64,000 bases of DNA from Pelagomonas calceolata. Taxonomy: Eukaryota. The stretch is from the NCBI GenBank assembly GCA_918797485.1, contig CAKKNE010000001.1, forward strand, positions 4,402,001-4,466,000. Direction: 5' to 3'. A program made the position numbers and the translations under genes. Shown here one piece after another: positions 15,826 to 63,542 of this stretch; position 1 is the first letter of the stretch; the number at the start of each line of letters is the position of its first letter. The notes below the pieces were generated by a model. That model was not told where the DNA came from and did no database searches. It saw only the letters and a program-made list of their open reading frames with translations.

Positions 15826-17440
15826 CTACTTCTTCTTGGCCGCGGATTTCGTCGTCTTGCCCTCCTTCTCGGACTTGTCGACCGACTTGATGACGCCGAC
15901 CGCGACCGTCTGGCGCATGTCGCGCACGGCGAAGCGCCCGAGCGGCGGGTACTCGGCGAACGACTCGACGCACAGCGGCTTCGTCGGCTCGAGCGTGACC
16001 ATGCACGCGTCGCCCGTCTTCACGAACTTCGGGTTCTCCTCGAGCACCTTGCCTGATCGCCTGTCCATCTTCTGGTCGATGTTCTTGAACTTGCACGCGA
16101 CGTGGGCCGTGTGGCAATCGAGGACGGGCGAGTAGCCCGACGAGATCTGGCCGGGGTGGTTCATGACGATGACCTGGGCGAAGAAGGTGCTCGCGCCCTT
16201 GGGCGGGTCCTTCTTGGAGTCGCCGCACACGTTGCCGCGGCGGATGTCCTTGACCGACACGTTCTTCACGTTGAAGCCGACGTTGTCGCCCGGCACGGCC
16301 TCGGGGAGCGACTCGTGGTGCATCTCGACGGACTTGACCTCAGTCGTGATCTGGACGGGCGCGAAGGTGCAGACCATGCCCGGCTTGATGATGCCCGTCT
16401 CGACGCGGCCGACCGGCACCGTGCCGATACCGCCGATCTTGTAGACGTCCTGGAGCGGGAGGCGCAGCGGCTTGTCCGAGGGGCGCTTCGGCGGGTTGGC
16501 GTTGTCGAGCGCCTCGAGGAGGTAGGGGCCCTTGTACCACGGCATGTTCGTCGACTTGTCGATCATGTTGTCGCCCATCCAGCCCGAGATCGGCACGAAC
16601 GGGATCTTCATCGGCTTGTAGCCGACCTTCTTCAGGTAGGTCGACACCTCGGCCTTGATCTCCTTGTAGCGGCCCTCGCCGTACTTGACCGACACGTCGT
16701 CCATCTTGTTGCACGCCACGATCATCTGCTTCACGCCGAGCGTGAACGCCAGCAGCGCGTGCTCGCGCGTCTGGCCGTCCTTGGAGATACCGGCCTCGAA
16801 GCCGCCCACCGACGAGTCAATCACCAGAATGGCGATATCGGCCTGGGACGTGCCCGTGATCATGTTCTTGATGAAGTCGCGGTGGCCCGGCGCGTCGATG
16901 ACCGTGAAGTAGAACTTCGGCGACTCGAACTTCCAGAGCGCAATGTCAATCGTGATACCGCGCTCGCGCTCGGCCTTGAGGTTGTCAAGCACCCACGCGT
17001 ACTTGAACGAGGCCTTGCCGAGCTCGGCCGCCTCCTTCTCGAACTTCTCGATCGTCCGCTTGTCGATGCCGCCGCATTTGTAGATCAAGTGACCCGTCGT
17101 CGTCGACTTGCCGGCGTCGACGTGGCCGATCACCACGAGGTTGATGTGCGTCTTCTCCTTCACCTGCGATGCGGGCGCGCCGGTCGTACAACGCTCTTTC
17201 CTCACCATAGGGCTTCACGTCGCGCGTGTGTGTGTCCGGGCCTGCTGACAGTGCCCGCCGCGGCGACCGACGGTCGTTCGCTGCGGCTGGCCGCTCGTCG
17301 GTCCGTGCTAGTGGCCAAGCAAAAATCTCGCATCGCCGAAGCTCCGCACGTCGCCGTCGCAGCGCGCGGGCCCGCAACGCGCGCCTCGCTGGACGCGGAT
17401 CGGCTGGAGGATTCTCAAACGTAACGCGGGTGCGCACCAT
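15826..17440 (-). CDS. EF1A: Elongation factor 1-alpha, copy A; exon 1 = ATG (17440-17438), intron 17437-17164
   Basis: [37 protein letters not shown] mirrors copy B. An alternative ATG at 17208 is possible. Confidence 0.95.
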
Positions 17441-18032: not shown

Positions 18033-19644
18033 TCACTTCTTCTTAGCGGCGGACTTGGTCGTCTTGCCCTCCTTCTCGGACTTGTCGACCGACTTGATCA
18101 CGCCGACCGCGACCGTCTGGCGCATGTCGCGCACGGCGAAGCGTCCGAGCGGCGGGTACTCGGCGAACGACTCGACGCACAGCGGCTTCGTCGGCTCGAG
18201 CGTCACCATGCACGCGTCGCCCGTCTTCACGAACTTAGGGTTCTCCTCGAGCACCTTGCCCGAGCGGCGGTCCATCTTCTGGTCGATGTTCTTGAACTTG
18301 CACGCGACGTGGGCCGTGTGGCAATCGAGGACGGGCGAGTAGCCCGACGAGATCTGGCCGGGGTGGTTCATGACGATGACCTGGGCGAAGAAGGTGCTCG
18401 CGCCCTTGGGCGGGTCCTTCTTGGAGTCGCCGCACACGTTGCCGCGGCGGATGTCCTTGACCGACACGTTCTTCACGTTGAAGCCGACGTTGTCGCCCGG
18501 CACGGCCTCGGGGAGCGACTCGTGGTGCATCTCGACGGACTTGACCTCAGTCGTGATCTGGACGGGCGCGAAGGTGCAGACCATGCCCGGCTTGATGATG
18601 CCCGTCTCGACGCGGCCGACCGGCACCGTGCCGATACCGCCGATCTTGTAGACGTCCTGGAGCGGGAGGCGCAGCGGCTTGTCCGAGGGGCGCTTCGGCG
18701 GGTTGGCGTTGTCGAGCGCCTCGAGGAGGTAGGGGCCCTTGTACCACGGCATGTTCGTCGACTTGTCGATCATGTTGTCGCCCATCCAGCCCGAGATCGG
18801 CACGAACGGGATCTTCATCGGCTTGTAGCCGACCTTCTTCAGGTAGGTCGACACCTCGGCCTTGATCTCCTTGTAGCGGCCCTCGCCGTACTTGACCGAC
18901 ACGTCGTCCATCTTGTTGCACGCCACGATCATCTGCTTCACGCCGAGCGTGAACGCCAGCAGCGCGTGCTCGCGCGTCTGGCCGTCCTTGGAGATACCGG
19001 CCTCGAAGCCGCCCACCGACGAGTCAATCACCAGAATGGCGATATCGGCCTGGGACGTGCCCGTGATCATGTTCTTGATGAAGTCGCGGTGGCCCGGCGC
19101 GTCGATGACCGTGAAGTAGAACTTCGGCGACTCGAACTTCCAGAGCGCAATGTCAATCGTGATACCGCGCTCGCGCTCGGCCTTGAGGTTGTCAAGCACC
19201 CACGCGTACTTGAACGAGGCCTTGCCGAGCTCGGCCGCCTCCTTCTCGAACTTCTCGATCGTCCGCTTGTCGATGCCGCCGCATTTGTAGATCAAGTGAC
19301 CCGTCGTCGTCGACTTGCCGGCGTCGACGTGGCCGATCACCACGAGGTTGATGTGCGTCTTCTCCTTCACCTGCGATGCGGGGCGCGCTCGGTCTCGTAT
19401 AAATGCACCTCATGCGGGGTTTCAGGTGTTTGCGTGTTTGAGGGGTTGCTGCCGATGGCCGGTGCAATCGCTGCGGTTGCCACAACGTCCGCGCGGCCGC
19501 AAAAGGCGCCATCGCCGGCATGGGGGATATTTGGTGATTGCGCGCCACAGGCTTGCCGCGGTGCGTGATTGCTCGATCAGCGGCCGCGCGCAATATATAT
19601 TGGGAGCAGGTGTGCAAGCAGGATAGGTTGGAGAGACGCACCAT
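18033..19644 (-). CDS. EF1A: Elongation factor 1-alpha, copy B; exon 1 = ATG (19644-19642), intron 19641-19371
   Basis: Protein identical to copy A; ATG|GTGCGT..CGCAG|GTG AAG GAG. Confidence 0.95.
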
Positions 19645-47372: not shown

Positions 47373-48260
47373 TTATGCTGCCGCCTTCTTCTTCGATGGC
47401 GCCTCCCCACCACTCGCGGCTGCGGCGCGCTTCTTGCTGTCGCGCCGCGCGACGGCCGCGAGCCGCCGTTCTTCGATCGCCGCGGCCGTCGCCGCATCAA
47501 TTGTAGAAGAGGGCAGCTCGAACTCGGGCGCCGGCGCCGCGCTCCCCCTACCAGACGCCTCGCCCGCGACGCCGCGCTGCACGAGCGCGTCCGCGCGCTC
47601 GTTCAGCGCGTCGCCGCTGTGGCCCTTGACGTGCTCCAACGCGAGTTTCCGCTTCCGCCGCGTGCCCTCGGAACAGTACAGGTCCCTACACGTCTTCGCG
47701 AGGTCGACGTTCTTGTGGGCCCGGAACGCGCCGGACGTGATGTTCGCCGCGTACGTGGAATCATAACATAAAGCCGCCGGCCCGTCGCTCCCCTCCTCGT
47801 CGCGCAGCCACAGCAGGGCTTCGGCGACGCCGCTGAGCTCGCCCGTGTTGTTCGATTTTTTCTCCGCGCCGAGGTAGTGCGCGTGTCCCGAGTCGATCAC
47901 GACCGGCCCCCACCGCTCCGCCAGCACCTTGCCGTCGCGGACCGCGATGAACCCCCAGCCCGCCGGCTGGTCCCGCTTACTGTCGACGTTCTGGTTGCCG
48001 CGGCAGCCGCCGTCCGTGTAGACGGCGACGGTGCCCTTCGGCGGCTTGTACGTTGTACGCTTCGGCTTCGTCGTGGACGAAGCGCGCGTGGCGGGCGCGG
48101 GGCTCCCGCGCACAAACGCCGCGGCCTCGGACTGGCTCTTGAACTTCTTGAACCGCGCGCCCGCGAAGCCGCTCACGAGTCTCTCGGCCTCGGGCCAGGA
48201 CCCGAAGACGCCCGTTGCTCTTCCTCTAGCTACGGCGTAGAACATGCGCTGGGCGGACAT
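47373..48260 (-). CDS. RNH1: Ribonuclease H1 with N-terminal hybrid-binding (Cauli_VI) domain
   Basis: FYAVARGRATGVFGSW..FKKF; VYTDGGC, NNTGEL, YDSTY, HVKGHSG..NERADAL. Confidence 0.92.
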   Translation of the reverse strand: MSAQRMFYAVARGRATGVFGSWPEAERLVSGFAGARFKKFKSQSEAAAFVRGSPAPATRASSTTKPKRTTYKPPKGTVAVYTDGGCRGNQNVDSKRDQPAGWGFIAVRDGKVLAERWGPVVIDSGHAHYLGAEKKSNNTGELSGVAEALLWLRDEEGSDGPAALCYDSTYAANITSGAFRAHKNVDLAKTCRDLYCSEGTRRKRKLALEHVKGHSGDALNERADALVQRGVAGEASGRGSAAPAPEFELPSSTIDAATAAAIEERRLAAVARRDSKKRAAAASGGEAPSKKKAAA

Positions 48261-48696
48261 TGTCGTCGCGTCGGCGGCGCGTCGGCTTCCTGTAATGCCT
48301 GGCGCGTCGGCGGCGCGTCGGTGCTGCCCGTTGACTCTGCACAGTGCAGCCTCAGCAGGAGTGCGCACGGCGGCGGCGTCGGTCTGCGCGCGCGCAGTTC
48401 TCAATGAAACGAAGTCGCAGCAGCCCTGCGACGAAGCGTGAATGTCGCAAAGGGTTTTTACCGCGCGTCTTAGCGCCGCTTCGCAGGTGCACCAACGACA
48501 AGGTACCTTACCCTATAAGTATAGTACCTCTTGCCAACGAGGCCCGCCAACCGGCGAACTTCCGTCAACAGAGCGGTCCAGAGGCGTCTCGCAGCAGTGC
48601 TCGTCTGGACCTTTGATCCGTTCCCAGGAGGAGCTAACCGGCGCCGTGCCGAGCTCCATAGACTCGCGCCACACCCGAGAAAATCACCCATCAGTC

Positions 48697-51031
48697 ATGG
48701 CGAACCCTATTGTTTGCATCAGCGTCTTAGTACGTCAAAGTGACAGCGCTCTGCGATTTTCGTGCAACCGCGGCAATCAGCGACCGAGGAAAGGCCAGGA
48801 GGCCTGCCTCGCTGATGCTCTGCGCGCGTGACGCGCGGCGGCGCCCTGCAGCAAGCGAGCAGCCACGAGTGGAGCACGCCCGTCGCCGCCGCAGCCCTGC
48901 ACGCATCCACATAAAACATGCAAAAAATCCGCCGCGACCGCCGACCGCCAAAACGCGCGCAGGTCTTCTTCGACATGTCCATCGGCGGCCAGCCGGCGGG
49001 GCGCATCGAGATGACGCTCCGCGCGGACGTCGTCCCGAAGACGGCCGAGAACTTCCGCTGCCTCTGCACGGGCGAGAAGGGTGCCGCGGCCGCGTCCCTC
49101 TTTTCTCAAACAACTCCGTGGCGCAATGGATAGCGTATCAGACTTCGAATCTGGGGGTTGCGGGTTCGAGTCCCGTCGGAGTTGTTTCGCCGATCGCGCG
49201 GCGGCCGTTCAGTATCCGTGGCCGAGTTGGTCTTTCATCTATGATGAACCATGAAGGCGTTGGATTTAAGCCCCAATCTCTTCGGAGGCGTGGGTTCGAA
49301 CCCCACCGGATGCACACATGAACGCCGTCGACGCGACACCGGACGGACTGGAAAATCTGAAGGTCGCGGGTTCGACTCCCGCATCGGTCTCTCCGCGGAT
49401 TGGACTTTGTGCAAGATAGTGTGGCCGAGTGGTTAAGGCGGTAGACTTGAAATCTACTCCCGTAAGGGTCGCAGGATCGATTCTCACAAAATCGATGCGC
49501 GTTCGAACCCTGTCACTATCGCGCACGTTGATGATGTGGCCGAGTGGTCTAAGCTCCTGTGAGCGACCAGAGGCGCTGGTTTTAGGCACCAGTCTTCGGG
49601 CGTGGGTTCGAACCCCACCATCATCACGACAAGTCCTTTCCGCACATTTGTATCCGTGGCCGAGTTGGTCTAAGGCGTTGGATTTAAGCCCCAATCTCTT
49701 CGGAGGCGTGGGTTCGAACCCCACCGGATGCATTTGGACCGATTGGCGCAACGGTAGCGCGTCAGATTCCAGTCCTGAAGGTTACGCGTTCGAATCGCGT
49801 ATCGGTCATAGAGCGCGTGTCGACGGTACGTTCCTACGCAGGCACGGGCCGCTCGGGCAAGCCGCTCTACTTCAAGGGCTCCACCTTCCACCGCGTCATC
49901 ACGGACTTCATGTGCCAGGGCGGCGACTTCACGCGCGGCAACGGTGCCGCGGCCGCGTCCTATGCATATTTGGGGGTGTAGCTCAGTGGCAGAGCGTCCG
50001 CTTTGCATGCGGAAAGCCCAGGGTTCAAACCCCTGCTCCTCCACACACACACAACTCCGTGGCGCAATGGATAGCGTATCAGACTTCGAATCTGGGGGTT
50101 GCGGGTTCGAGTCCCGTCGGAGTTGTTGCTGCTCGACGGCGCGGAGGTGGAGCCTCGCACGCCGAGACCGGGCCGGTCACGCGCGCACGCGCAGGCACGG
50201 GCGGCGAGTCCATCTACGGCGAGAAGTTCGCCGACGAGAACTTCCAGCTCCGCCACACGGGCCCCGGCGTGCTCTCGATGGCCAACGCCGGCCCGGGCAC
50301 GAACGGCTCCCAGTACCGCGGCCGCGTCCTTTCATTCAACTCCGTGGCGCAATGGATAGCGTATCAGACTTCGAATCTGGGGGTTGCGGGTTCGAGTCCC
50401 GTCGGAGTTGTTGCTCGATAGCGTGGTGCGTCTCGACGCACCACGATCTGGACGGACTGGAAATCTGAAGGTCGCGGGTTCGACTCCCGCATCGGTCTTG
50501 CTTGCGGATTGGACTACGATAGTGTGGCCGAGTGGTTAAGGCGGTAGACTTGAAATCTACTCCCGCAAGGGTCGCAGGATCGATTCTCACAAAATCGATG
50601 CGCGTTCGAACCCTGTCACTATCGCGCACAAAGTCCTTTCTGCACATTTGTATCCGTGGCCGAGTTGGTCTTTCGTCTATGACGAGCCACGAAGGCGTTG
50701 GATTTAAGCCCCAATCTCTCCGGAGGCGTGGGTTCGAACCCCACCGGATGCATTTGATACATTTGACCGATGGGCGCCACGGTGGCGCGTCAGACTCCAG
50801 TCCGATGTCAGATTCCAGTCCTCCGAGAGAGCATACAAGGGCAATGTCGACGGTACAATCACACGCAGGTTCTTCCTCTGCACGGTCAAGACCGACTGGC
50901 TCGACGGCAAGCACGTCGTCTTCGGCTCCGTGACCAAGGGCATGGACGTCGTCAAGAAGATCGAGGCCGTCGGCTCGGGGTCCGGCGCGACGGCCAAGCC
51001 GGTCGTCATCACCGACTGCGGCCAGCTCTAA
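48697..51031 (+). CDS. Cyclophilin (PPIase), 171 aa; exons 48697-48711, 48963-49080, 49842-49943, 50195-50312, 50869-51031
   Basis: Four GT-AG introns removed give [89 protein letters not shown]. Confidence 0.95.
49112..49184 (+). tRNA. tRNA-Arg(TCG), copy 1
   Basis: Acceptor AACTCCG/CGGAGTT, anticodon arm TCAGA-CTTCGAA-TCTGG, GGTTCGAGTCC. Confidence 0.93.
49212..49314 (+). tRNA. tRNA-Leu(TAA) with 20-nt D-loop intron (49234-49253)
   Basis: Identical to the intronless copy 49650-49732 once the insert is removed. Confidence 0.88.
49345..49390 (+). tRNA. Orphan 3' half of tRNA-Trp with anti-anticodon leader, copy 1
   Basis: ATCTGAAGGTCGCGGGTTCGACTCCCGCATCGGTC, preceded by GGACTGGA. Confidence 0.6.
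49415..49521 (+). tRNA. tRNA-Ser(TGA) with 26-nt T-arm intron (49476-49501)
   Basis: Acceptor GATAGTG/CACTATC-G, GTAGA-CTTGAAA-TCTAC, long variable arm; GCAGG|TTCGAAC is restored after removing the insert. Confidence 0.88.
49530..49626 (+). tRNA. tRNA-Leu(TAG) with 19-nt D-loop intron (49552-49570)
   Basis: Acceptor GATGATG/CATCATC-A, CTGGT-TTTAGGC-ACCAG; GGTCTA|AGGC is restored after removing the insert. Confidence 0.87.
49650..49732 (+). tRNA. tRNA-Leu(TAA), intronless
   Basis: Acceptor GTATCCG/CGGATGC-A, loop TTTAAGC, variable arm, GGTTCGAACCC. Confidence 0.92.
49737..49808 (+). tRNA. tRNA-Trp(CCA), contiguous, with A31-C39 mismatch
   Basis: Acceptor GACCGAT/ATCGGTC-A, D stem GCGC/GCGC, loop TTCCAGT, T stem ACGCG/CGCGT. 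Confidence 0.8.
49972..50043 (+). tRNA. tRNA-Ala(TGC)
   Basis: G3:U70 identity pair, TCCGC-TTTGCAT-GCGGA, GGTTCAAACCC. Confidence 0.92.
50053..50125 (+). tRNA. tRNA-Arg(TCG), copy 2
   Basis: Identical to 49112-49184. Confidence 0.93.
50338..50410 (+). tRNA. tRNA-Arg(TCG), copy 3
   Basis: Identical to 49112-49184. Confidence 0.93.
50454..50498 (+). tRNA. Orphan 3' half of tRNA-Trp with anti-anticodon leader, copy 2
   Basis: Same as 49345-49390 apart from one A in the leader. Confidence 0.6.
50518..50624 (+). tRNA. tRNA-Ser(TGA) with 26-nt T-arm intron (50579-50604), copy 2
   Basis: Near-identical to 49415-49521 (one variable-loop change). Confidence 0.88.
50650..50752 (+). tRNA. tRNA-Leu(TAA) with 20-nt D-loop intron (50672-50691)
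   Basis: Same body as the other Leu(TAA) copies (one variable-loop change); intron variant TTCGTCTATGACGAGCCACG. Confidence 0.87.
50765..50821 (+). pseudogene. Degenerate 5' half of tRNA-Trp with duplicated anticodon segment
   Basis: GACCGATGGGCGCCACGGTGGCGCGTCAGACTCCAGTCC, then GTCAGATTCCAGTCC again. U8, A14 and A21 are altered and no T arm follows. Confidence 0.6.
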
Positions 51032-51108
51032 GCGTCGTGGAGCGCGCGACGCGCACCGACTAGCTACCCTATAAGATTCGTCAAAACTTACTCACCCTTG
51101 ATCACTCG

Positions 51109-51402
51109 CTACTTGACGTTCTCCTGGACGACGATGAGCAGATACTCGGGGTCCGGCGCGACCATGATCTCGTGCTTGTTGCTTCGAATCCGGAAGAAGG
51201 CGAGCTCGTCCTGATCATCTAAAACGCGCACGACGTTCCTTGCTTTGGTGGCTAATTGTGAGAGTAGAGCGGCGTACGTTTGCGTTTCGTCGTCGTCGAG
51301 GTTCGATCTTATCGGTACGCCGTCGGCGGAGACGATGAGCACGCCCTTGACGCCGCGGTGGGACTGGATCCTCTTCAGGGTCTCCTCGACCTCGGACGAC
51401 AT
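51109..51402 (-). CDS. Dynein light chain roadblock (LC7)
   Basis: [45 protein letters not shown]. Confidence 0.95.
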
Positions 51403-51780
51403 GGCGCGGTCCAAAGGCTGCCTGTCCGCTTACAGCTCCCGGTCCCTGGTGGTACTGGTTCCTGCCTTGCGCTTCCGAAAACTAGTTGCCCAGAGACGTT
51501 CTAAGGCAGCGGCGCTGTCCCGAGATCGATTACCCCGCAGACGCGTTTGGTTTTGCGCGGCGCTGGACTGTATAATATTAGCGTGGAGAGGTACTAGCGA
51601 GCCACGGAGGAAGCGACTTCTCGTAGCAGGACAGCTCGGACCCGCCCGGCGACGGATCCCTGCGAAAACACAGGCGCCATCGGGCTCGAGATCGTCGTCG
51701 TTGGGCTGCCCGCGCTCTTGGAGTCCGCGCGCCCGTCGCAGCAGCGCAAGAACGCGCACGGAACGCGTGTCGCCCCCTGC

Positions 51781-52653
51781 ATGGACGCGGAGGCTGCCCC
51801 GTCGCCGCGAGCACCCATGGCGGCCCTGGAGAGCACGCTCAACGCCGAGGCCGAGGACGCCGTCGTCGTCAAGCCCGAGACGGCCCTGACAACGACGGAG
51901 GACGCCGCAGAAGACAATGACGCCGTCGGGCCCCTGGAAGCCTGGGGCGAGACGAAAGAACCTGAGAAGGAAGAAAAAAAGCTCCACCAGTGCGTCTTCG
52001 ACACGAATCGGAAGCTTGGGTTACATCTGAAGCGCGGCGACGACGGACGGGCCGTCGTGACGAAGGTCGACGAGGAGGGCCAGGCGGCGGCCGGTCGGCT
52101 CAAGGCGGGTTATATACTTGCGACCTTCGACGACGAACCATGTGACGAGTACGATCTCTTCCTAGAATGCTTCGCTGGTGCAAAGGAGCACCAGGCACTT
52201 ATTAGACTAGGCTTCGAGAAGGTCAAGAGTCAGAAGACCAACGAAGAGGAAGAATTGGTGGAAAATGAGTGCGAGGTCCAGGAGGCGATCGTCGAACGAG
52301 CCCCCCCGGAGAAGCGCGACATGCTCGCGCGGAAGATTAAAGATAGATTACGCATATTGGACGCCGAGGCCGACGGCGACGAAGCGGGAGACGCGGCCTT
52401 CGCGGCGTACATGGCGCGCGAGCGCCACGAGGCCGACGCAAAACTGAAATCGCTGCAGGAGGCCTGGCGCAAGGAGTCGAACGCGAAGGACCGGTCGACG
52501 AATAGGAGAGTGGCGGAGTTGAAAGCCGAGAATGATAGACTGAGGGGCTTGTATTCTTCCACTCAAGTGAAGGAGCTGCCGACGGACAAAGGTCTGGCCA
52601 AGGTCAAGGAAGCGCGGGCCGAGTTGGAGCGGCTCCGGGCGCTCCACGGCTAG
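51781..52653 (+). CDS. PDZ-like + coiled-coil hypothetical protein
   Basis: KLGLHLK..AVVTKV..GQAAAGRLKAGY.L, then a charged helical tail. Confidence 0.6.
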   Translation: MDAEAAPSPRAPMAALESTLNAEAEDAVVVKPETALTTTEDAAEDNDAVGPLEAWGETKEPEKEEKKLHQCVFDTNRKLGLHLKRGDDGRAVVTKVDEEGQAAAGRLKAGYILATFDDEPCDEYDLFLECFAGAKEHQALIRLGFEKVKSQKTNEEEELVENECEVQEAIVERAPPEKRDMLARKIKDRLRILDAEADGDEAGDAAFAAYMARERHEADAKLKSLQEAWRKESNAKDRSTNRRVAELKAENDRLRGLYSSTQVKELPTDKGLAKVKEARAELERLRALHG

Positions 52654-57233: not shown

Positions 57234-60200
57234 ATGGGGCGTGGTGGCCAGAGGCCCCCGAGCCCTGCCACCCTGGCTGCTATAGTGCCGCCGCTGCGCG
57301 ACGACGAGCTACAGCACTACACGGTCTTAGAAGGAGCGGCCTATGACCTACGAAAGCTCGGCGACCGCCACCCCGGCGGCGCTTTGGCACTAACCTTCGC
57401 GGGCGGCCGGGACCTGAGTCGGACGTGGGCGGGCCTCCACGGCTTCGCGGACCCGCAGAAAACTAGAGCGTGGTTGACGCATATGAGGGTCAGAGACAAG
57501 GAGCTCGAGCGACGCATCGTGCGACGAGCAAAACCAGACGCGTACAGCGAGGGCGATAATGTATCAGCACATCTCGCGCGCATCGAGCGGGAAGCATCGA
57601 GCTTCAATGAATTATCGCAGAAAGGCCGCGTGCCTCCATCAGAACCTCCGTCCCATTTAATAGAGCGCGACTTGGGCGGCGAACTCGGGACGAGGGTGCG
57701 GTGGTTGTTCCGCAGGAAAGCTCATGCATCAAAAACATCATTGAATGCAGCCACGAAGGCGCCCACGGCGTACTGGCCCTGGTTAATTGTAGTAGTGACG
57801 GCCTTCCTCGCGTCCTATGTTTCATGGTGTCGAGGGAGCTACGTCGGGTTGATAGCACTCGGCCCGCTCGGCCAGTTACTAGCCTTCGCGGTGATGCACG
57901 ACGCGTCGCACTACGCCATCTCGACCAAGCGCTGGGTCAACGTCGCGCTGGCCTACGCGGGCGTCGCCTACACGTCGCCGCACGAGTGGACGCTGCAGCA
58001 CGTCCTCGGCCACCACGTCGCGCCGAACGTGGAAGGCGAGGACCCGGACGTCGTCCACGCGCGGCGCTACATGAAAGCATTAACTGGCGTCGGGAAAGCT
58101 TTTGATGCGCTGCTCGTGTGGCTCGTGGCTCTACCGGCAGCCATAACTTTACTGGCACCGGTACGCGTGCGCAAGAACGACGGCGTCTACCCCGCCTCGA
58201 CGGTGCACGAGGGCGAACGAAGTATGATAAGGCACGTGGCGCACTTCGCCGGACGGTTAATACATGCGCTGGCATTCTTCCTCTGGCCCTTCTACGTCTA
58301 CTCACCACTCACAGCGGTAACGTGGGTCTTGATTCCGGCCTGCTCTGGTTCTTTAGTTTTTATGGCCGTGACGCAGGTGGCGCATTTACTGGAGGCCACG
58401 ATCGAGGGGCCCTCGAATGCGCCTCGATCCTGGGCCTCGCAGCAAATTGCGAATGCGTGCGATTTCGCGCCGGACTCGCCGTTAGTTGCGAGATTGACGG
58501 GCGGCCTCAATAGACAAGTGGAGCACCACCTCTTTCCGACCGTGCACCACTCGCACCTACCGGAGCTATCATCTATAGTACAAGATGTCACAAAAAGAAG
58601 AGGCCTGGACCACCACGTCCTGCCGTCCGCCACAAAAGCTCTGGGGGACCACCTCGCGTTCTTGCGGAGCCTCGAGGAGGCGCCTCCATTACCTGTCGTG
58701 TACGACGGTACTGTGGTGCACGCGCGCGCGCCGATTGCCAACGAACCTAGACATCGCTTCTCCGCGTCGCATGCCATGTGGTTATTGCCCTTGGATGATC
58801 CCGAGGCCATGCGCACCCTTGAGAAAGGATGTATCCGGTGGCGCGCCGCGGACCATCTGAGGTCGAGGCCCGGGGAGAGGAAGACACCAAAAGACGTCGC
58901 GGACGCCGTCCGATCTCTCTGTCGGGAACGAGGAGGCTCTTTAAAAAGAGTGGACTCGCCCGATAGTGTGATCAAGCACTTTCAAGGTAGTAGACGTACG
59001 GGCCTCGGTTCGGTCTCACTATTGACGATGCCTCGGACCTTCGGCTACGTCTTCAACCCCATCTCCGTCTACTACGTGAGGGATGCGAATGACAAGCCGG
59101 CCTATGTTGTTTTTGAAGTGTCGAATACGCCTTGGCTGGAAGAAACGCTCTACGTACATCCCGTTAATACAAAAGATACATATGAAGATATGAAGAAGAT
59201 GCACGTGTCGCCCTTCCAGCCCATGGGCCAAATGTACAAGTGGACGGCGCCGTTTCCTTCTGAGAATGTGTCTCTAAGGGTCGACGTGTCGAGAAATGAT
59301 AAGCCGTATTTCGTGGCCACGTTCGACGGTGCCGCGTCGACGGCGCCTTCCACAACATTAGGGAGAGTGCGTACGGCTCTCAAACTGACCCCACATACCG
59401 CCGTCTTGTTAATCCACGCGCACGCCGCCCTCTTACTAGCAAAAGGTGCAAAATTCTACCCTCATCCAAGCGGCGTGAAGACGGCCATGTCGCGATGTAT
59501 CGAGGTGATCTATCATTCGCGGTATCGCTTGTTGGCCTACTACTTGTTGAGACGGTTGCATGCGCCTCAGTACCTCATCGCGACGGCGGCCGTCAGCGTC
59601 TTACAGCGCGCCGCGTCTGTATTGTCAAGGAAAAGTTCATCGAAGAACGTGTCATCAAAGGATACCAAAGATGTACCTTTCGAGATGGTCGAGTCCCCGA
59701 AAAATAACAGTACGCCGATGCTGGCTACTGAGGAGAATTTAGCCGGTAATGCTACTGGAAAGCGCGTCGCCATCATCGGTAGTGGCATTGCGGGCAACGG
59801 TGCTGCTTACTTACTAAAAAAGCGCGGCGTCGACGTCACGGTCTTCGAGGCCTCATCAATACCGGGCGGCCACGCGCTTACGGTCGAGGTCGAGGGCCGT
59901 GCTGTCGACGTGGGCTTCCAGGTCTTCAACCTCGCGAACTACCCGAGACTGTCAAAACTGTTCGATGAACTAGGCGTGCAGCACGTCCAGAGCGACATGA
60001 GCCTGTCGTGTGAGGGCACGCAGTGCTGGTCCTCGAAGAACCCGTTAGTTGGTTGTTTGTTGTCACCAAGCAAACTCTGGCAGCGGTTGTCTTTACTCAT
60101 GGAGATCCTCAAGTTCGAGAAAAAGTGCAAACAGCTCTTGCAGAGTGAAGAAGATCCGTCTTTGTCCATACAAGAATGGTTAAACGAAAATAACTTCTCG

Positions 60201-63200
60201 GAAAGGCTAGCTCGAGAATACTGCGAGCCCATGGTCGGGGCCATCTGGTCGCGTACGCAGGGCGATGTGTTAGATGAGTTTCCGATCTTGGGCGTGGCCC
60301 AGTTTCTGGCGAACCACTACATGCTCGACCGGTCGCGGCCGGCGTGGCGAACGCCGCGGTTAAGATCGCAGGACTACGTTACGAAGTTAGTCGAGAAGGT
60401 CGGGCGGGACGCGTATCGACTATCATCGAGGGTGCGCGCTGTACATAAGGATCGCTCCAATAAGTGGTTAATAGAGTCCGATTCACCGACGGCCCTGGCC
60501 TTCGACGCTGTTATACTCGCGTGCGACGCGCCGACGGCTTCTACCATACTAGGGGACCAGGCGCCGGACCTACTCAAGCAGCTCAAGGTAACGCAAAATG
60601 ATGTCTGTGTCCACCGCGACGCGTCGCTCATGCCTTCTGACAGAAACGCGTGGGCGGCCTGGAACTGCCGGCCGAACGGCGTGTTGACCTACTGGGCGAA
60701 TGTGCTACAGCCCGGTGTCGATGATCAGGACCTGTTTATTACCTTGAATGGATCTACGCCAGCCCCCTTATGGCGGCGGACGTTACAACATCCCGTGCTC
60801 GATGCGGCGTCGCAGAAATGGAGGGAGTCATTACCATCACTCCAGGGGAACGAGGGTATTTATTTTGCCGGCGCCTGGTGCGGCTTCGGCTTCCACGAGG
60901 ACGGCCTCAAATCGGCCTACGATGCTGTGGATGCTTTGTGTGGTACGACGACCCCTATCGCTCGATCACCATTTGTAGCCAGTTCATCCTTGACGAAGAC
61001 GGCTTTAAGATGTGTCTGTCGCGGCGCTCGAGCGCTAGCAGCAAGGACTGCTGATAAAACGAGACCGCGGCCGGAGATCGTCCTGACTTTACCGGAAGGT
61101 CTCGACTTAATAGCGGCCGACGCCGTCTCTAGTAAAGAGAGAGTTGAGGTAAGAATCCTAGACGGACGAGCGGCCTGGCGGTTATTAGCTGATCCGTCGA
61201 TGGGGCTGGCCGAGGGGTACATGGAGGGGAGCCTCGACCTGAAGCCGTCTATTCGAGCTGTGTTACATGCCGCCCTGAAATGTAAAAATAAGGATGCGGG
61301 CGATAGTCCCCAGAACGTGGCGTCGCGATCACTCCTCACAGTCGGCAAGCGGTTCACCGACGTCATCCAACACGCGTTCAACGCCAATACTAAGTCAGGT
61401 AGCTTGAAGAACATCGCGGCGCACTATGATTTGTCCAATGCCTTTTATGAGCTGTGGTTGGATGAAACCCTCACCTACTCCTCAGCTTTGTATGATGACC
61501 ACGAGCCCTACTTACGAAGGGAAGGTTTACTGGTAGATGACGGTCGGAGAGGTACTGTGGACGAAGACGCATCAGACGACGTGTTAGCGGCAGCGCAACG
61601 TAGGAAACTAGATTCATTACTGGACAAGGCCGGCGTGCGCGATGGTGATAGAATACTAGAGATCGGGTGCGGCTGGGGTAGTCTAGCGTTGCGGTGTACG
61701 GAACGCTTCCCGAACTGTGAGTACGTGGCCATCACTATTTCCCGGGAACAGTTGAACGAAGCCTCGCAACGGTTGGAAGGTAAGAGCAATGCCAGGGTCG
61801 TCTTCTGCGACTATCGCGACGCGCGAGACAAGCTGGGCTTGTTCGATCGCGTGCTGTCCTGTGAGATGATCGAGGCCGTCGGCCACGCCTTTTTACCGTC
61901 CTATTTCTCGGCGATCCACGCCTGTCTGAAGGGCGGTGGGTCGGCCTCCCTACAGATCATCACGGTGCCCGACGAACGGTACGCTTCATATATCAAGGGT
62001 AGCGATTTCATCCGGAAGCACGTCTTTCCTGGTTCTTCATTGGTATGTCTGGAAGCCGTAAAAAAAGCCCTGCCGAAGCTAGGCTCTTTAGCTTTAAGGT
62101 TGGACGACGCGGCTACTTTAAGCATGGGCGTATCTTATGCTCGTACCTTACGGGCGTGGCGCGTCCGTTTCGACGCTGTCGAAGACCAGGTATCTAAGCT
62201 CGGTTTTGATGACGTCTTCGTCAGGAAGTGGAGGTATTATCTGGACTACTGCGAGGCGGGCTTCGCGTGTGGTCATATCGACGTGAAGCAGATACGACTC
62301 GAGAAGACGGACGAAAGCCTTGCGAGAGAAGCGACGGAGGGCGCCCATGGTTCGAAACCCATCTCGGTGAAGGATATGACTATCAAGGCCGTGAAGGGCG
62401 TGGCCACTACGGCCTTTGAGCGAGGCTTACTGCCGGATTTCGTGACGCGGTATGGGATAAGACAGCTCTCGGCGCAGCAACTGAGGCACTGCGACGACGC
62501 CGGTCGCGCAGCCAACAACGGCGAGGCGGGCTTGGCTGGTAGTCAAGAGAAGCTCCGGGAGACCATCCAGGCTTTGTTGGAAGCGCCGGTAGCAGTATGT
62601 ACGTCCGAGGCGAACGAGCAGCACTACGAAGTCGACGCGCGCTTCTACGGGCTGTGTCTGGGGCCCCATAGGAAGTACTCTGCTTGTTTATATGAAGGGG
62701 CGGAGCCGAAGTGGCCCGGGAACAAACTGCAAAAAGACGCGGCTCGGTTACTGCCAAAGGCGGAAAAGGATTCATTAGATCAAGTCGCGGCTCGCGGCGA
62801 CATCACGCAGGCCACGAAAGCTATCTTAGATTGCGGCTGCGGCTGGGGGTCGGCCTCGCTGTACTTGGCGGATAGATTCCGGAACGCCCAGGTGGTAGGT
62901 GTCTCGAATTCTCATTCCCAGAGAAGGTACATCATGGGCCAGGCTCAAGAACGAGGATTGACGAACCTGCAGATTGTGACACTGGATTTGTCGAAGGAGC
63001 CTCTCACAAAAGCCTTGGACGCGTTGCAGAGTCGACTGCCGGGCCAGTATTTCGAGCGCGGCGTCTCGATAGAGATGTTCGAGCACATGAAGAATTATAA
63101 GGCATTATTTGAGAAGATCACGGCGGTACTACAGGACCAGGGCCGCTTCTTCGTGCACGTGTTCTGCCACCGGCAGTACGCGTACCACTTCGTGGCCAAG

Positions 63201-63542
63201 TCCGACGCGGACTGGATGGCCAAGTACTTCTTCGCGGGCGGTACCATGCCTTCGGCCGATTTATTTGTTCATTTTGCGGCGCGGAAAGATGCGCCCGTCG
63301 CGCTCGTGGACCACTGGCGGAACAGCGGCGTGCATTACGCGTTGACGGCGGAAGGCTGGCTCCAGAACATGGACGCCAACGCGGCGGAAGTCAGAGAGAT
63401 ATTAAAGGAGGCCTACCCTGAAAATGAGACGGAGCTCTGGTTCCACCGCTGGCGCGCCTTTTACCTCGCGTGCGTCGAACTCTTCGGCTACGACGGCGGC
63501 CAGGAGTGGTGCATCGGGCACTACCTCTTCGAGAAGCGGTGA
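57234..63542 (+). CDS. 2102-aa six-domain fatty-acid-modifying fusion: cyt b5, desaturase, DUF1365, FAD oxidoreductase, CFA-type methyltransferase, second SAM methyltransferase
   Basis: HPGG; HDASH / HVLGHH / QVEHHLFP; YDGTVVHAR..FGYVFNPIS..KKMHVSPF; IIGSGIAG..GAWCGFGFHEDG; NIAAHYDLSN..LEIGCGWG..WRYYLDYCEAGF; ANEQHYEV..LDCGCGWG..SIEMFEHMKNY..ELFGYDGGQEW. Confidence 0.93.
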   Translation: MGRGGQRPPSPATLAAIVPPLRDDELQHYTVLEGAAYDLRKLGDRHPGGALALTFAGGRDLSRTWAGLHGFADPQKTRAWLTHMRVRDKELERRIVRRAKPDAYSEGDNVSAHLARIEREASSFNELSQKGRVPPSEPPSHLIERDLGGELGTRVRWLFRRKAHASKTSLNAATKAPTAYWPWLIVVVTAFLASYVSWCRGSYVGLIALGPLGQLLAFAVMHDASHYAISTKRWVNVALAYAGVAYTSPHEWTLQHVLGHHVAPNVEGEDPDVVHARRYMKALTGVGKAFDALLVWLVALPAAITLLAPVRVRKNDGVYPASTVHEGERSMIRHVAHFAGRLIHALAFFLWPFYVYSPLTAVTWVLIPACSGSLVFMAVTQVAHLLEATIEGPSNAPRSWASQQIANACDFAPDSPLVARLTGGLNRQVEHHLFPTVHHSHLPELSSIVQDVTKRRGLDHHVLPSATKALGDHLAFLRSLEEAPPLPVVYDGTVVHARAPIANEPRHRFSASHAMWLLPLDDPEAMRTLEKGCIRWRAADHLRSRPGERKTPKDVADAVRSLCRERGGSLKRVDSPDSVIKHFQGSRRTGLGSVSLLTMPRTFGYVFNPISVYYVRDANDKPAYVVFEVSNTPWLEETLYVHPVNTKDTYEDMKKMHVSPFQPMGQMYKWTAPFPSENVSLRVDVSRNDKPYFVATFDGAASTAPSTTLGRVRTALKLTPHTAVLLIHAHAALLLAKGAKFYPHPSGVKTAMSRCIEVIYHSRYRLLAYYLLRRLHAPQYLIATAAVSVLQRAASVLSRKSSSKNVSSKDTKDVPFEMVESPKNNSTPMLATEENLAGNATGKRVAIIGSGIAGNGAAYLLKKRGVDVTVFEASSIPGGHALTVEVEGRAVDVGFQVFNLANYPRLSKLFDELGVQHVQSDMSLSCEGTQCWSSKNPLVGCLLSPSKLWQRLSLLMEILKFEKKCKQLLQSEEDPSLSIQEWLNENNFSERLAREYCEPMVGAIWSRTQGDVLDEFPILGVAQFLANHYMLDRSRPAWRTPRLRSQDYVTKLVEKVGRDAYRLSSRVRAVHKDRSNKWLIESDSPTALAFDAVILACDAPTASTILGDQAPDLLKQLKVTQNDVCVHRDASLMPSDRNAWAAWNCRPNGVLTYWANVLQPGVDDQDLFITLNGSTPAPLWRRTLQHPVLDAASQKWRESLPSLQGNEGIYFAGAWCGFGFHEDGLKSAYDAVDALCGTTTPIARSPFVASSSLTKTALRCVCRGARALAARTADKTRPRPEIVLTLPEGLDLIAADAVSSKERVEVRILDGRAAWRLLADPSMGLAEGYMEGSLDLKPSIRAVLHAALKCKNKDAGDSPQNVASRSLLTVGKRFTDVIQHAFNANTKSGSLKNIAAHYDLSNAFYELWLDETLTYSSALYDDHEPYLRREGLLVDDGRRGTVDEDASDDVLAAAQRRKLDSLLDKAGVRDGDRILEIGCGWGSLALRCTERFPNCEYVAITISREQLNEASQRLEGKSNARVVFCDYRDARDKLGLFDRVLSCEMIEAVGHAFLPSYFSAIHACLKGGGSASLQIITVPDERYASYIKGSDFIRKHVFPGSSLVCLEAVKKALPKLGSLALRLDDAATLSMGVSYARTLRAWRVRFDAVEDQVSKLGFDDVFVRKWRYYLDYCEAGFACGHIDVKQIRLEKTDESLAREATEGAHGSKPISVKDMTIKAVKGVATTAFERGLLPDFVTRYGIRQLSAQQLRHCDDAGRAANNGEAGLAGSQEKLRETIQALLEAPVAVCTSEANEQHYEVDARFYGLCLGPHRKYSACLYEGAEPKWPGNKLQKDAARLLPKAEKDSLDQVAARGDITQATKAILDCGCGWGSASLYLADRFRNAQVVGVSNSHSQRRYIMGQAQERGLTNLQIVTLDLSKEPLTKALDALQSRLPGQYFERGVSIEMFEHMKNYKALFEKITAVLQDQGRFFVHVFCHRQYAYHFVAKSDADWMAKYFFAGGTMPSADLFVHFAARKDAPVALVDHWRNSGVHYALTAEGWLQNMDANAAEVREILKEAYPENETELWFHRWRAFYLACVELFGYDGGQEWCIGHYLFEKR

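Follow-up and report, generated by a model that had tools for sequence, protein, structure and literature searches.

Why should one protein-coding gene house three near-identical tRNA-Leu(UAA) genes, one of them continuous and two interrupted by a 20-nt insert? The question is raised by a cyclophilin gene in a 64,000-nt stretch of the Pelagomonas calceolata assembly GCA_918797485.1 (contig CAKKNE010000001.1, positions 4,402,001 to 4,466,000, forward strand), hereafter the window, in whose coordinates all positions are given. An earlier, sequence-only reading had reported three near-identical bodies, two inserts that differ at four sites with their fold kept, selection on the splicing structure, and recent or ongoing gain or loss of the intron. 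Our analysis makes it probable that the inserts are genuine tRNA introns in a strict bulge-helix-bulge (BHB) motif, that the alga's own tRNA-splicing endonuclease removes them, and that all three genes yield the same tRNA apart from one letter of the variable arm. It also goes beyond the earlier reading in four respects: the D-loop site of the introns, their location within spliceosomal introns, the occurrence of the same tRNA cassette in unrelated genes, and a giant-virus bin that carries the same intron family.

The three bodies were confirmed, and the ends of the two inserts are unambiguous. Copy 1 without its insert is identical to copy 2 letter for letter, so that splicing would restore a canonical tRNA, recognized as tRNA-Leu by both ARAGORN and Rfam; copy 3 treated in the same way differs from copy 2 once, by a T to C change at body position 51 in the variable arm. 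Because copies 1 and 2 share the T, this letter separates copy 3 from the other two and not the intron-bearing genes from the intronless one. Counted from the acceptor stem, the insert lies in the D loop at 20b/21, outside 37/38. It comprises one bulge letter, a 5-bp stem with a 3-nt loop, four letters that pair with D-loop positions 17-20, and two bulge letters. The result is a strict BHB, its 4-bp central helix flanked at the exon-intron joints by 3-nt bulges, one per strand, and its exon-side helix being only 1 bp beside the D stem. In local folding the BHB is the minimum-energy structure for copy 1 (5 of 200 shuffles were as stable) and the centroid structure for copy 3 (19 of 200); when the entire precursors of the two copies are folded, the minimum-energy structures are others, with no BHB.

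The two inserts differ at insert positions 4, 12, 15 and 19, in each case by a transition, and the fold is indeed kept: one pair of the intron helix changes on both sides, from A-T to G-C, one pair of the central helix goes from T-A to a T-G wobble, and one letter of the 3' bulge changes. The four letters of the copy 3 intron recur in a contig of run X1 that has the upstream flank of intron 4. When all possible changes at four sites were enumerated, 18873 of 392445 (4.8%) kept every pair and 6300 (1.6%) did so with a double change as well; with transitions only, the corresponding figures were 1830 of 4845 (37.8%) and 465 (9.6%). Since four random transitions keep the fold about 38% of the time, the two alleles of the window are by themselves weak, suggestive evidence of selection.

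A wider sample of alleles was obtained by scanning metagenome contigs with a pattern of two fixed exon flanks separated by 0-30 free letters, which returned 16 loci, all from close relatives (cited below by their L numbers). Together with the window, these loci hold 23 Leu(UAA) genes, 11 with an intron (10 distinct) and 12 without, as well as 10 Leu(UAG) genes (7 distinct introns) and 12 Ser(UGA) genes (6 distinct introns), every one of the latter two kinds containing an intron. None of the 23 Leu(UAA) bodies departs from copy 2 at more than one place, a figure to be read with the search pattern in mind, which itself fixed 36 of the 83 letters. The motif is kept by every distinct intron allele (10/10 for Leu(UAA), 7/7 for Leu(UAG) and 6/6 for Ser(UGA)), with four of four central pairs and at least four intron-side pairs in all 23, a result that shuffled letters achieve in 0-3 of 1000 trials; the loops (3-10 nt) and the bulge letters vary among the same alleles. 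Intron substitutions that disrupt the fold were sought in this sample, and none was found among the 23 distinct alleles, indicating that selection on the intron fold is well supported.

Covariation gave a more uneven result, clear in Leu(UAG) and weaker in Leu(UAA) itself. In the Leu(UAG) alignment, 63 of 63 cells are paired, three pairs have changed on both sides and the score was reached in 0 of 500 shuffles; these double changes come from two alleles, and the tool itself warns that relatedness inflates such covariation counts. In the Leu(UAA) alignment, all 100 cells are paired, one pair has changed on both sides (A-U in five alleles, G-C in four and G-U in one) and another on one side, and shuffles reached the score in 14 of 500 trials and the pair count in 383 of 500. 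A tally in fixed register covered 215 cells, none of them broken, and gave ten types of double change, of which seven were counted and three excluded on account of a register shift in L003.

The host gene lies in nuclear eukaryotic DNA with a GC content of 56-71%. The nearest named relatives of the triosephosphate isomerase encoded in the window are from pelagophytes (Chrysophaeum taylorii, 69%; Aureococcus anophagefferens, 64-65%), and marine metagenomes contain DNA near-identical to the window, both in line with a pelagophyte, probably a Pelagomonas-like one. RNA data came from two polyA runs made from the same sample, each covered to about 6 parts in 100, and were mapped over 48600-49268. 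The joint between exons 1 and 2 is covered by 1690 and 766 reads in the two runs, and 1622 and 866 reads pass from exon 2 into exon 3, indicating that introns 1 and 2 are spliced; introns 3 and 4 appear to be spliceosomal from the reading frame and their GT..AG ends. Intron 2 contains, in order, Arg, Leu(UAA) with its intron, a Trp-like 3' half, Ser, Leu(UAG), the intronless Leu(UAA) and Trp. Intron 4, a paralogue of intron 2 by alignment, contains Arg, a Trp-like 3' half, Ser, Leu(UAA) with its intron and a degenerate Trp 5' half. All 11 tRNA genes of introns 2-4 lie on the mRNA strand, and those of intron 2 have the location expected of host-gene intronic tRNAs, within a spliced intron and in sense orientation. 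Rfam gave nine tRNA matches above cut-off within 48000-52000. ARAGORN detected 6 of the 11 genes and none elsewhere in the 64 kb; because standard scans miss such genes, the tRNA sets of these algae and their viruses are likely to be under-annotated.

Features of the cyclophilin locus and its tRNA cassettes, in window coordinates
Feature	Position	Strand	Basis
20-nt BHB intron at 20b/21, A-T helix version	49234..49253	+	central helix 4/4 pairs, 5-bp intron helix, two 3-nt bulges
20-nt BHB intron at 20b/21, G-C helix version	50672..50691	+	same motif
tRNA-Leu(UAA) copy 1, D-loop intron	49212..49314	+	comparison of body and insert
tRNA-Leu(UAA) copy 2, intronless	49650..49732	+	ARAGORN; Rfam RF00005, 51.6 bits
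tRNA-Leu(UAA) copy 3, D-loop intron; C at 50720	50650..50752	+	comparison of body and insert
tRNA-Leu(UAG), 19-nt BHB intron at 21/22 (49552-49570)	49530..49626	+	Rfam; motif
tRNA-Ser(UGA), 26-nt BHB-type intron at 53/54 (49476-49501), splitting the B box	49415..49521	+	Rfam; motif
tRNA-Ser(UGA), second copy, intron 50579-50604	50518..50624	+	Rfam; motif
tRNA-Arg(UCG)	49112..49184; identical copies 50053-50125, 50338-50410	+	ARAGORN, Rfam
tRNA-Ala(UGC)	49972-50043	+	ARAGORN, Rfam
tRNA-Trp(CCA), A31-C39 mismatch	49737..49808	+	ARAGORN, Rfam
Trp-like 3' half (anticodon stem 3' side, T arm, acceptor 3' strand)	49345..49390; second copy 50454-50498	+	predicted fold
Cyclophilin (peptidyl-prolyl isomerase) host gene, 5 exons, 171 aa	48697..51031	+	open frame across GT..AG introns; PF00160 on exons 2 and 5
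Cyclophilin exons 1-5	48697-48711, 48963-49080, 49842-49943, 50195-50312, 50869-51031	+	joints 1-2 and 2-3 in RNA reads; 3-4 and 4-5 inferred
Spliceosomal intron 2, 761 nt	49081..49841	+	RNA reads linking exons 2 and 3
Spliceosomal intron 3 (inferred), 251 nt; Ala(UGC) and Arg(UCG) inside	49944..50194	+	reading frame, GT..AG ends
Spliceosomal intron 4 (inferred), 556 nt	50313..50868	+	reading frame, GT..AG ends; alignment with intron 2
17-nt 5' intron end	49081..49097 (intron 2); also intron 3 (49944), intron 4 (50313; 16/17)	+	letter comparison

The cassette is not confined to the cyclophilin gene. With much the same gene order, it occurs at other loci within introns of unrelated genes, namely a bile-acid symporter (L005 and L013), in which the Pfam match runs on past the intron, a sodium:solute symporter with a weak match (L003), a cold-shock/CCCH protein (L011 and L016) and genes without a name (L001, L002, L009 and L010). 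Similar introns at non-homologous sites, one trait of introner elements, are also found within the cyclophilin gene, whose three sites share 16-17 of their 17 first letters; the same or a near-same start occurs with the cassette in other genes, and no other GT-starting place in the window lies within two mismatches of it. This start is predicted to pair with a segment just before the 3' splice site (49814-49829 in intron 2 and 50846-50856 in intron 4, with probabilities of 0.97-1.0). The pairing is imperfect, with G-U pairs included: it covers 14 bp in intron 2 and 10 bp in intron 4, is weak in intron 3, and stops 12 nt before the 3' splice site. One presence/absence pair was found, a 249-nt intron with two Arg(CCU) genes (L011:1080-1328) where L016 has an unbroken exon, although the 5' end of this intron is only loosely similar to the others; no empty site of the cyclophilin introns was seen in the sampled loci. 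Among 14 introns inspected, no target-site duplication was present at the cyclophilin or L005 sites, and L001 offered only a partial likeness. Since no target-site duplication was seen, we do not class the cassette introns as introners, though they are introner-like in behaviour and have probably been copied both between genes and within the cyclophilin gene. Another intron of the cold-shock/CCCH gene of L011 and L016 starts with GC.

A relaxed form of the Leu-intron pattern matched one IMG/VR contig, from a giant-virus bin (G001, 539,882 bases, with a DNA polymerase B match) whose tRNA region is gene-dense with 31-32% GC. The Leu(UAA) gene of this bin (L017:595-723) has, at the site used in the alga, a 23-nt intron belonging to the same family, and 0 of 200 shuffles fold as well. 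It carries a second insert in the T loop, with three of four central pairs, and its body without both inserts differs from copy 2 at four places that form two compensatory pairs. The adjacent Tyr gene (L017:376-397) has a strict BHB intron motif at 17/18. No match to PF01974 or the tRNA endonuclease family was found in the bin, which is 85% complete. Among viral contigs, the strict Leu, intronless and Ser-intron patterns gave no matches, and the relaxed Leu-intron and Tyr-intron patterns gave one contig; prokaryote genomes contained no match to the Leu pattern. A further contig with 26% GC (L014) has at 136-220 an intronless Leu(UAA) that agrees with copy 2 in 83 of 83 letters and is followed by Ile(UAU), as in the virus bin. 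This contig is likely to be viral, but it had no relatives among viral contigs and its atlas matches were under 0.9. Short relics of algal spacer were also observed upstream of the viral Leu gene, and more tRNA genes of the bin (L020 = G001:C8:31000-33350, L018:11135-11250 and L021), Trp-, Asn- and His-like among others, have anticodon-arm inserts and were missed by ARAGORN.

How would such tRNAs be made? We propose that the intron is excised at the two bulges and that the tRNAs are cut from the intron RNA of the host gene as a polycistron, rather than being transcribed singly. Release from host intron RNA is preferred on the following grounds. No run of four T occurs within 25 nt after any of the 11 tRNA genes of the window, and one occurs inside Leu(UAG); the B box of Ser is split; a pelagophyte gene table, used as a stand-in (PMC9481584 Supplementary Data 2), includes among its searched rows two PF01974 catalytic endonuclease subunits and Sen54, with no row for Sen15 or TFIIIC; and passages on Cyanidioschyzon merolae describe the same three endonuclease subunits and no box-binding TFIIIC homologues (PMC3728597). 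If the introns are real and each tRNA gene, or each cassette from its first gene on, is nevertheless transcribed independently of the host gene by Pol III (RNA polymerase III), the intronic site would serve merely as a safe landing place. This alternative, which we regard as rather unlikely, would fit the position of the Leu introns just behind an intact A box, the intact boxes of Arg and Ala, and the Pol III subunits annotated in the stand-in genome (PMC9481584); it is opposed by the lack of terminators between genes, the T run inside Leu(UAG) and the split B box, by the finding that every ARAGORN tRNA at the algal loci lies on the host-gene strand, and by polyA reads that run from Ala through to Arg (113 and 68 reads, with a consensus agreement of only 0.6). 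It is far less likely that the insert-bearing copies are pseudogenes or stay unspliced, with copy 2 supplying the tRNA and conversion alone keeping the bodies alike. No spliced joint was seen, D-loop reads mapped on copy 1 retain the insert, and the eukaryotic endonucleases known so far measure with a ruler set at 37/38 (PMC3728597), all as such a reading would have it; yet the helices are kept while the loops change in length and sequence, even where the stems are wholly different (L007 and L011), Leu(UAG) and Ser(UGA) are never intronless at these loci, and the viral copy combines the motif with compensatory changes in two stems.

The polyA reads in the tRNA region derive from the mRNA strand only and represent only intron-bearing precursors, the library and the mapped stretch being unsuited to spliced tRNA; over the tRNA intron they reach about 1% of exon depth, are all in sense orientation and have copy-3 letters in 33 of 36 and 14 of 15 cases. 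Several observations must be counted against excision and the history proposed here. No RNA joint across the tRNA intron was listed, in a mapped stretch that ended 15 nt past it and in polyA libraries without tRNA. Copy-1 letters occur in at most 3 of 36 and 1 of 15 RNA reads, and the depth of run X1 over the intron consists entirely of copy-3 letters. The gene table belongs to a stand-in species and was searched by term in 14,639 rows of 16,667 genes, an absence from it being one of annotation only. The Leu(UAA) helix may have undergone its double change only once, with conversion spreading the result. Finally, all four combinations of intron state and T/C letter occur, the intronless form with C coming from a single contig (L005), and one contig or more joins two host genes as a chimera (L015, which begins in a bile-acid-symporter gene and ends in cyclophilin); because of these two contigs, the combinations may be products of assembly.

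The earlier suggestion that the intron has been gained or lost recently, or is still being gained and lost, at this locus is unproven, as no cassette position in this sample was found in both states. Intron-bearing Leu(UAA) copies occupy the hairpin after Arg (5/5), the place directly after Ser (3/3) and the gene of L001 and L002 (2/2), and copies after Leu(UAG) are all intronless (9/9); the other four copies, with other or unseen flanks, comprise one with an intron (L008) and three without (L010, L013 and L014). Both states occur in the order of the window on L004, L009 and L015. Copies 2 and 3 are identical in 18 of 20 upstream letters, as against 5-15 between copy 2 and the other intronless spacer types. 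From this likeness and the paralogy of introns 2 and 4, we infer that the intron state switched either when the cassette was duplicated, fairly recently, or afterwards, there being no outgroup for polarity. The stem in cyclophilin intron 4 is G-C in the window and A-T in L012, exons 3-4 of the two being 100% identical. Gene conversion among paralogous cassettes would best explain these combinations of flank and allele: both versions would persist since both work, and conversion would move whole versions from slot to slot, leaving copies 2 and 3 different within shared flanks. New gains or precise losses might instead still be happening here, by recombination with a reverse-transcribed spliced tRNA or a viral tRNA gene, so that copies 2 and 3 form a very recent before/after pair. 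The shared upstream letters, the intronless body of the AT-rich contig L014, the intron-bearing Leu(UAA) of the giant-virus bin and the near-identical haplotypes that differ in the cassette content of cyclophilin intron 4 all speak for such turnover; we nevertheless consider it unlikely, given the absence of any position in both states, the constant order on three contigs and the membership of all Leu(UAA) intron alleles in one family, for which one gain suffices, again with no outgroup. An artefact of assembly as the source of the three copies is scarcely credible and largely refuted: repeats like these do yield chimeras, as L015 illustrates, but the same order and states recur on independent contigs, and copy 3 with its flank was recovered in run X1.

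Compared with known systems, the locus combines an intron of a familiar kind with a lineage and a genomic setting that are new for it, in a mixed state contrary to the usual rule. Ectopic BHB introns in nuclear tRNAs are described for C. merolae, Chondrus crispus and the Guillardia nucleomorph (PMC3728597; bioRxiv 10.1101/2021.12.21.473619; PMC3978253; PMC13578239). As in red algae and archaea, the introns are short, lie in the D loop and T arm of tRNA genes and adopt a strict or relaxed BHB (PMC3728597, in part); the D-loop introns of C. crispus are at 20/21, and their splicing has been demonstrated (bioRxiv 10.1101/2021.12.21.473619). Unlike in red algae, they are found in the nucleus of a stramenopile, one genome and even a single host intron holds identical bodies both interrupted and uninterrupted, and the tRNA genes form cassettes within spliceosomal introns. 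The relevant passages of a 2026 review name no stramenopile case and no pelagophytes (PMC13578239), the word 'tRNA' is absent from the main text of PMC9481584, and a literature search that reached few subscription papers turned up no description of either the introns or the cassettes from stramenopiles or giant viruses. The members of an isodecoder family usually either all have an intron or all lack one, the mixed cases being of different origins, according to passages of Yoshihisa 2014 (PMC4090602). Conversion between tRNA paralogues, the homogenising force proposed in that source, would act here too; contrary to the rule, the identical bodies make up a single family in a mixed state, be it stable or transient. 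How the intron state spreads is a question that those passages leave open (PMC4090602).

The setting of the genes likewise has partial parallels. Intronic tRNAs of Caenorhabditis also lie within introns of protein genes and are influenced by the host promoter (PMC4999229), but the genes described here stand several to a cassette, with no terminators, and the homologous introns that hold them turn up in genes with no relation to one another. A pelagophyte genome is credited with 956 putative introner elements (PMC9481584 Supplementary Note 3, in part). The cassette introns share with introners the similar introns at unrelated sites, the complementary ends and one presence/absence pair, and differ from them in their cargo of tRNA genes and in that no target-site duplication was seen (compared with passages of PMC11282704). 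In a Caldiarchaeum population, tRNA-Thr is heterogeneous in introns and fragments, with differing intron content in one tRNA, as here; that case is archaeal and tied to a recombinase-bearing element, of which none was seen here (PMC3293823).

If our reading is correct, archaeal-style, position-free tRNA splicing extends from red algae and nucleomorphs to the stramenopile nucleus, in a group of abundant, culturable algae. A single host intron in which identical bodies occur both interrupted and uninterrupted would then constitute a natural experiment on the function of tRNA introns and on the spread of intron state, and if the cassette introns move, they would be introns with useful cargo and not mere parasites. 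More tentatively, we can imagine that pelagophytes make many of their tRNAs from a mobile family of cassette-carrying spliceosomal introns that spreads from gene to gene, that box-dependent Pol III transcription was given up, whereby introns in the D and T arms became tolerated, and that giant viruses take and return both versions; this is possible rather than expected.

Several minor features of the cassettes were also recorded. The Trp-like 3' half stands upstream of a 5' half, as in a circularly permuted tRNA, but that reading was rejected in that no BHB is present at the leader/trailer joint: the predicted 8-bp and 6-bp helices are 1-2 nt apart, with no paired 3-nt bulges in the registers tried by hand. 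The 3' half, with a covarying T stem, lies upstream of Ser in the window, L002-L007, L009, L011, L012, L015 and L016, and the downstream Trp of intron 4 and L002 is without its own 3' half. The leader of the half is predicted to pair with the anticodon arm of Trp 430 nt downstream, at the far end of the cassette; in the folding model this pairing, which is compensated in L005, might close a domain around Ser and Leu. The degenerate Trp 5' half at 50765-50821 is altered in the D arm, and its anticodon arm is tandemly duplicated. Predicted spacer helices enclose Ser and also Leu(UAG) (49395-49412 with 49523-49526 and 49631-49643) and recur in intron 4 (50503-50515 with 50632-50644), with probabilities of 0.6-0.99. 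The start of the Ser intron (49474-49485) is B-box-like, with two mismatches to the consensus, as if the T loop had been duplicated locally. A 15-nt motif beside copy 1 occurs 11 times in the window (0.11 expected), but it was rejected as a repeat family, most occurrences being without common context.

Elsewhere in the window, a 1.36-kb segment is duplicated at 15828-17185 and 18035-19394 with 99% identity, and the stretch that was read looks by eye like elongation factor 1-alpha. A single open reading frame of 2102 aa at 57234-63542 appears, again by eye, to combine a cytochrome b5/desaturase-like part, an FAD oxidase and two methyltransferase-like parts.

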